NCBI RefSeq assembly: GCF_000026545.1
Contig: NC_011601.1
Reading direction: 5' to 3' (one strand)
Source of the DNA: Escherichia coli O127:H6 str. E2348/69
Lineage (GTDB): Bacteria; Pseudomonadota; Gammaproteobacteria; Enterobacterales; Enterobacteriaceae
DNA: 64,000 bases
Shown here: positions 25,555-25,632 of the stretch, in pieces
Layout: each line of letters starts with the position of its first letter
How positions within the stretch are numbered: the first letter of the stretch is position 1
Notes under the pieces: model-generated
Told to the model about the DNA's origin: nothing
Database searches by the model: none
What the model saw: only the letters and a program-made list of their open reading frames with translations
Translations under genes and position numbers: made by a program

Positions 25555-25586
25555 AATGCGACCAATCATCGTAATGAATATGAGAA

Positions 25587-25607
25587 GTGTGATATTATAA
25601 CATTTCA
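25587..25607. promoter_or_regulatory. Zur operator shared by the divergent znuA and znuCB promoters
   Basis: GTGTGATATTATAACATTTCA, a Zur-box-like AT-rich palindrome centred in the 78-bp divergent intergenic region. Confidence 0.75.
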
Positions 25608-25632
25608 TGACTACTGCAAGACTAAAATTAAC

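Follow-up and report, generated by a model that had tools for sequence, protein, structure and literature searches.

The znuA/znuCB operator of E. coli is one of the best characterized metalloregulatory switches in bacteria. The operator of strain K-12 has been crystallized with two Zur dimers and shown to mediate repression (PMC4219657; PDB 4MTD/4MTE), and both PDB entries were recovered here with the K-12 Zur protein. The crystal structure demonstrated that the two Zur dimers occupy overlapping 13-bp RNNNYxxxRNNNY sites that are offset by 5 bp, and binding to the K-12 operator was described by a Kd-app of 8.2e-18 M^2 and a Hill coefficient of at least 2 (PMC4219657). According to PMC2706843, which cites Patzer & Hantke, the bidirectional promoter region between znuA and znuCB contains one cis element to which Zur binds. 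The znuA and znuCB promoters are both active in vivo, and RNA polymerase and Zur compete (PMC2611976).

The E. coli Zur boxes of ykgM (L31p), zinT and pliG have the TGWNAYRWTATAWYRTNWCA/RNNNY-skeleton architecture in common with the znu box, but each of them controls a single promoter, and the znu box controls two divergent ones. In affinity as well as in repression in vivo, the znu operator is among the weakest of four E. coli operators (PMC4219657). The zinT and L31p operators bind Zur about 150- to 300-fold more tightly and give 560- to 980-fold repression, compared with 6.6-fold for znu (PMC4219657). The znu locus of Yersinia pestis is divergent like that of E. coli, with a gap of 73 bp between znuA and znuCB (Li et al. 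2009, PMC2706843). Its Zur box overlaps the -10 elements, and both znuA::lacZ and znuC::lacZ fusions are repressed by Zur (PMC2706843). Two separate DNase I footprints were found in Y. pestis, only one of which contains a Zur box (PMC2706843), whereas the papers cited here describe one region in E. coli.

Gene order around the divergent znu region

The znu locus of the enteropathogenic E. coli (EPEC) strain E2348/69 was analysed within a 64-kb stretch of DNA, referred to as the window, and all positions below are those of the window unless stated otherwise (Table 1). ZnuA, ZnuC and ZnuB all scored above their NCBIfam equivalog cut-offs, which identifies them as the high-affinity zinc ABC importer ZnuABC. 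The ZnuA translation contains the His/Asp-rich loop, and znuB overlaps znuC by 4 nt. The start codon of znuA is an ATG on the minus strand with its first base at 25554, and the ATG of znuC begins at 25633. The 78-bp divergent gap proposed in an earlier sequence-only reading of this DNA is therefore exact, as judged from gene coordinates, translation and the RefSeq annotation.

The genes, the 78-bp gap and the box are those of the K-12 znuA/znuCB operator (Patzer & Hantke 1998/2000; Gilston et al. 2014). Over 25535..25652, the sole difference between K-12 MG1655 and E2348/69 is at 25567, which is C here and A in K-12. This single substitution in the gap is 17 bp outside the 23-bp Zur box, and the box itself is base-for-base the same as in K-12. 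A 601-bp query around the gap matched the E2348/69 chromosome at 100%, and the RefSeq coordinates of that record correspond one-to-one to those of the window. At an identity of at least 95%, this query was found in 5425 of the 5426 complete E. coli genomes and the 78-bp gap in 5422 of them. The zur gene, which is located outside the 64-kb window, was present in 5425/5426 genomes of this collection, a species-level count that includes E2348/69 assemblies. One plasmid-labelled record in the collection carries the znu region together with zur; this probably reflects a chromosomal replicon with the wrong label, or an assembly artefact, and not a mobile znu locus.

On the left side of the gap, znuA is followed on the same strand by mepM. 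The mepM start lies 15 nt past the znuA stop codon, and a Shine-Dalgarno-like GAGGAAG is present in these 15 nt, in which no terminator-like site was found. A strong terminator-like hairpin after mepM is the probable end of the leftward unit. The znuA-mepM arrangement, with a gap of 11-19 nt, was observed in 77/80 Enterobacterales loci. Co-transcription of znuA and mepM was proposed earlier by Murphy et al. 2019, who named EPEC O127:H6 and cited the induction of mepM by zinc starvation (PMC6381278). Given the short gap with its GAGGAAG motif, the lack of a terminator between the two genes, the hairpin after mepM, the recurrence of the arrangement and the published proposal, the leftward Zur-controlled unit is probably znuA-mepM, which is in line with a hypothesis already in the literature.

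Table 1. Positions of genes, Zur sites and candidate promoter and terminator elements at the znu locus
Feature	Position	Strand	Details
pyk	20620..22062	+	RefSeq
lpxM	22194..23165	-	RefSeq
Terminator-like hairpin after mepM	23244..23268	-	9-bp stem, 6 G-C pairs, then T-run TTTTTATTTG
mepM	23284..24606	-	zinc-dependent murein endopeptidase; RefSeq
znuA	24622..25554	-	periplasmic zinc-binding protein; NF007091, 526 bits (cut-off 268); RefSeq
Divergent intergenic region	25555..25632		78 bp, between znuA and znuC start codons
Classical 23-bp Zur box GAAGTGTGATATTATAACATTTC	25584..25606		11-1-11 pseudo-palindrome, dyad 25595
Structure-based 20-bp two-dimer Zur box TGTGATATTATAACATTTCA	25588..25607		overall pseudo-dyad between 25597 and 25598
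First predicted 13-bp dimer site, RNNNYxxxRNNNY	25589..25601		G25589, T25593, A25597, C25601; centre 25595; published rule (PMC4219657) applied to the sequence
Second, overlapping predicted 13-bp dimer site, RNNNYxxxRNNNY	25594..25606		A25594, T25598, A25602, C25606; centre 25600; same rule (PMC4219657)
Candidate extended -10 of znuCB promoter, TGATATTAT	25590..25598	+	inside Zur box; read from sequence
Candidate extended -10 of znuA promoter, TGTTATAAT	25594..25602	-	inside Zur box; read from sequence
Putative -35-like element for znuA, TTGCAG on minus strand	25614..25619	-	conserved block
znuC	25633..26388	+	ATPase subunit; NF007090, 536 bits (cut-off 306); RefSeq
znuB	26385..27170	+	permease subunit; NF007089, 534 bits (cut-off 284); RefSeq
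ruvB, ruvA	after znuB	-	RefSeq

The Zur box and its two registers

The sequence-only reading placed an AT-rich palindrome of 21 bp at the centre of the gap. The A+T content is 75% over 25584..25607 compared with 49% for the whole window, and the dyad of the element, at 25595 or 25597/98 depending on the register, is close to the gap midpoint of 25593.5. The AT-rich character and the near-central position were thus correct, but the 21-mer is not the palindrome: taken about its own centre, 25587..25607 (GTGTGATATTATAACATTTCA) has only 1/10 complementary arm positions. Symmetry is highest in the 23-mer register 25584..25606, GAAGTGTGATA-T-TATAACATTTC, in which 9/11 arm positions are complementary; a repeat finder reported a 9-nt core palindrome only and not the 23-mer. 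Since the 64-kb window holds 14 palindromes of the 11-1-11 type with at least 9/11 complementary positions, this degree of palindromy does not exceed chance, and it was dropped as a criterion of significance. It is the motif match to Zur, rather than palindromy, that stands far above chance.

The 23-bp gamma-proteobacterial Zur consensus, GAAATGTTATA-N-TATAACATTTC (quoted in PMC4219657), agrees with 25584..25606 at 20/22 positions. In a search that allowed up to 3 mismatches, this was the only match in the window, with the next best site at 15/22, and 100 shuffles gave 0 matches at the same threshold. The structure-based motif TGWNAYRWTATAWYRTNWCA of Gilston et al. 2014 (PMC4219657), which contains the RNNNYRNNRYNNYRNNNY skeleton, matches 25588..25607 exactly and has no other match in the 64 kb. 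The znu site itself contributed to both published motifs, which makes the exact match to TGWNAYRWTATAWYRTNWCA partly circular, and an independent weight matrix was therefore built. This matrix was symmetrised and constructed from three K-12 MG1655 Zur sites only (ykgM, zinT and pliG), with znu left out, and both strands of the window were scanned. Its top match was 25588..25607 with 24.4 bits, ranking first of about 128,000 positions, and the runner-up reached 16.9 bits. In 200 dinucleotide-preserving shuffles the mean maximum was 11.6 bits and the largest 18.9, with 0/200 reaching 24.4. The site thus carries the significant Zur matrix score whose absence had been named as the observation that would speak against the sequence-only reading.

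The runner-up, TGTTATGAAAAAAAATAACA, lies between zwf and hexR at 19489..19508 and forms a 6-N8-6 palindrome. Because its score falls inside the range of the shuffled controls, it is probably not a Zur site; a different regulator, for example HexR, might use it as an operator.

The top match of the znu-free matrix, the identity of the box with the K-12 operator and the flanking znuA, znuC and znuB genes all bear out the earlier assignment of the element as a Zur operator, and no observation speaks against it. For the identical K-12 sequence, zinc-dependent Zur binding and the repression of both promoters are known (PMC4219657; work of Patzer & Hantke cited by PMC2706843 and PMC2611976). The stretch 25584..25607 is almost certainly the operator through which Zur controls the E. 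coli znu locus, and two Zur dimers bound to it would occlude both promoters when zinc is sufficient. Zur binding, the two-dimer stoichiometry and repression come from the literature on K-12 and not from the present analysis, which establishes the identity and significance of the site, its identity with K-12, its conservation and the identities of the genes.

The classical dyad and the structure-based pseudo-dyad are 2.5 bp apart, a difference in register that arises because the two Zur dimers occupy overlapping 13-bp sites with an offset of 5 bp (PMC4219657). When the published rule was applied to the sequence, two such dimer sites were predicted (Table 1), the first of which is centred on the same base as the classical 23-mer. 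A secondary weight-matrix match of 12.9 bits was found at 25583..25602, 5 bp to the left of the top match, and the best matrix match of the orthologues falls in either of two registers that are 5 bp apart; both observations are consistent with two overlapping dimer sites. The gap contains one operator without a second separate box, and by the published rule this operator would have two overlapping dyads and be bound cooperatively by four Zur monomers in two dimers. The "single Zur palindrome" of the sequence-only reading holds insofar as there is one operator, but its single dyad gives way to two overlapping dyads under the PMC4219657 rule. The 21-mer covered the whole structure-based 20-mer plus one base, although its boundaries were about 3 bp off. 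The znu site is useful as a positive control: it was located to within 3 bp from the letters alone, and it is the single top match of an independent matrix in 64 kb.

Candidate promoter elements, conservation and competing readings

Zur may not be alone at this operator. In an extension of the two-dimer reading, apo-ZntR, which is reported to act on the Zur-DNA complex in a "through-DNA" manner, would speed up the release of Zur, and SoxS would have an indirect positive effect on znuACB expression. Control by a single Zur palindrome, as in the sequence-only reading, would then be an incomplete account. Partial ZntR recognition sequences are reported to overlap Zur boxes, including that in the 31-bp znuCB/znuA promoter DNA, and ZntR was reported to enhance Zur unbinding in cells and in vitro (PMC11618457). 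Activation of znuACB by SoxS is summarized as indirect, with no gel shift (PMC12818246). However, ZntR alone was reported not to bind znu DNA (PMC11618457), and nowhere in the znu gap did the zntA operator (ACTCTGGAGTCGACTCCAGAGT) have a match of at least 10/22, or its half-sites a match of at least 7/11. With nothing above background in this comparison with the zntA palindrome, a ZntR (MerR-type) operator in the gap was rejected. Because ZntR alone does not bind and the zntA operator has no match, any DNA-sequence component of ZntR action would be weak and undetectable by simple identity. We regard the participation of ZntR and SoxS as a tentative possibility.

How the operator could occlude two promoters was considered from the arrangement of the gap. 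A generic sigma-70 scan of 25400..25800 for -35/-10 promoters and terminators returned no canonical promoter and no terminator. The absence of a canonical -35/-10 pair is compatible with promoters relying on an extended -10, and one extended -10 motif per strand can be read by eye inside the Zur box. These motifs, together with the analogy to Y. pestis, suggest that the Zur box overlaps the -10 elements of both promoters. With the -10 elements placed in this way, a single operator could block both of the back-to-back promoters.

Conservation was examined in one genome per species, which gave 80 Enterobacterales loci whose ZnuC relative was 60-98% identical. A divergent znuA was kept in 80/80 loci, and the gap measured 75-79 bp in 49 of the 54 loci in which the ZnuA alignment reached residue 1. 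The best match of the independent matrix in the whole 3.7-kb locus was 20-80 bp upstream of znuC in 76/80 loci. In a MAFFT alignment, each position of 25588..25603 (TGTGATATTATAACAT) had the base of the window in about 0.9-1.0 of the sequences, except for 25591 (0.63), whereas the rest of the gap had a mean conservation of 0.55. An ungapped core-anchored alignment gave the same picture at the flanking non-anchor columns 25589, 25590, 25602 and 25603. The bases of the candidate znuA -10 were almost invariant in 77 orthologous loci. The conserved core could partly reflect the two -10 elements, and conservation alone cannot separate an operator role from a promoter role.

The exceptions to the matrix match were mostly insect symbionts with reduced genomes. 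Pantoea sp. Nvir, Ca. Steffania adelgidicola and Ca. Gullanella endobia (loci L054, L066 and L082) have kept the znuA-znuC arrangement, but their gap (about 1400..1500 of the respective locus, upstream of znuC) lacks a good Zur box, which may represent a loss of Zur control in reduced genomes.

Beyond the Zur box on the znuA side, at a fixed distance of 8 bp, TGCAA at 25615..25619 (TTGCA on the minus strand) was conserved in 66 to 76 of 77 loci. No equally conserved block was found on the znuC side of the gap in the 77 Enterobacterales loci. The TGCAA block is probably the -35 of the znuA promoter. It could also be the counterpart of the second footprint of Y. pestis. We think it unlikely that the block is a second protein-contact site, be it an equivalent of the box-less "site 2" Zur footprint of Y. 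pestis or a docking place for ZntR. If it were, the control of the two promoters would be asymmetric, and with read-through into mepM the supply of a cell-wall endopeptidase would be tied to zinc status via one operator.

The promoter motifs raise a further reading, in which the AT-rich core consists only of two overlapping TATAAT-like -10 elements, one on each strand, with the palindromy being a by-product of back-to-back promoters and no dedicated repressor site present. Extended -10-like motifs are indeed readable on both strands inside the core and occupy invariant columns, and palindromes of comparable quality are common in the window (14 in total). However, the match runs past the -10 hexamers into the GTG/TGT and ACAT(TTC) arms that characterize Zur boxes, a matrix made from unrelated Zur-regulated promoters gives it 24.4 bits, and the sequence is the same as the K-12 DNA that was co-crystallised with Zur (PMC4219657). 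In addition, promoter and operator roles are compatible, since promoter occlusion needs exactly such an overlap. We consider it highly improbable that the core is promoter sequence alone.

Least probable of all is that the element is a Fur (iron) box or the site of another Fur-family regulator: the Fur box of E. coli, like the znu box, is an AT-rich pseudo-palindrome that binds Fur-family dimer(s) and overlaps a promoter, and Fur and Zur are paralogous, but the 19-bp Fur consensus GATAATGATAATCATTATC matches 25570..25633 at 11/19 at best, a background level reached by 0.5% of window positions, and a Fur box was rejected. The central TATA is moreover Zur-specific and absent from the Fur box (PMC4219657).

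The proposed zinc switch and other features of the window

With the element taken as a Zur operator bound by two dimers, the following switch can be proposed. When cytoplasmic zinc is sufficient, zinc-loaded Zur would sit on the one operator at about 25584..25607, as two cooperatively bound dimers on overlapping dyads near 25595 and 25600. The operator would then cover the candidate -10 elements of both back-to-back promoters and exclude RNA polymerase, so that znuA (probably together with mepM) on the left and znuCB on the right would both be shut off. When zinc drops, Zur would lose its regulatory zinc and come off the DNA, and the high-affinity ZnuABC importer would be made.

The operator is already known, intact and ordinary, as the sequence-only reading had stated in calling this a textbook zinc-uptake locus: the box is the K-12 operator, and ZnuA, ZnuC and ZnuB are equivalogs. 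It carries little weight as a discovery. ZnuABC is important for the growth of pathogens under zinc sequestration by the host, and an EPEC strain is expected to carry the locus intact.

Several features elsewhere in the window were noted along the way. RefSeq places a frameshifted and incomplete remnant with a "Tar ligand binding domain" at about 51560..51711, in the interval between cheR and tar. K-12 has tap at this position, and the tap chemoreceptor appears to have been lost in E2348/69. At about 62505..64000, araH is truncated with its N-terminus missing and adjoins an IS4-like ISEc13 transposase gene that extends past the end of the window. Matches at the Rfam gathering score were obtained for MicL (41288..41595, minus strand), the antisense pair SraC/RyeA and SdsR/RyeB (6074..6218, both strands), C0465 (53466..53543, plus strand) and ES036 (37310..37352, plus strand), all of which are expected E. 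coli sRNAs.
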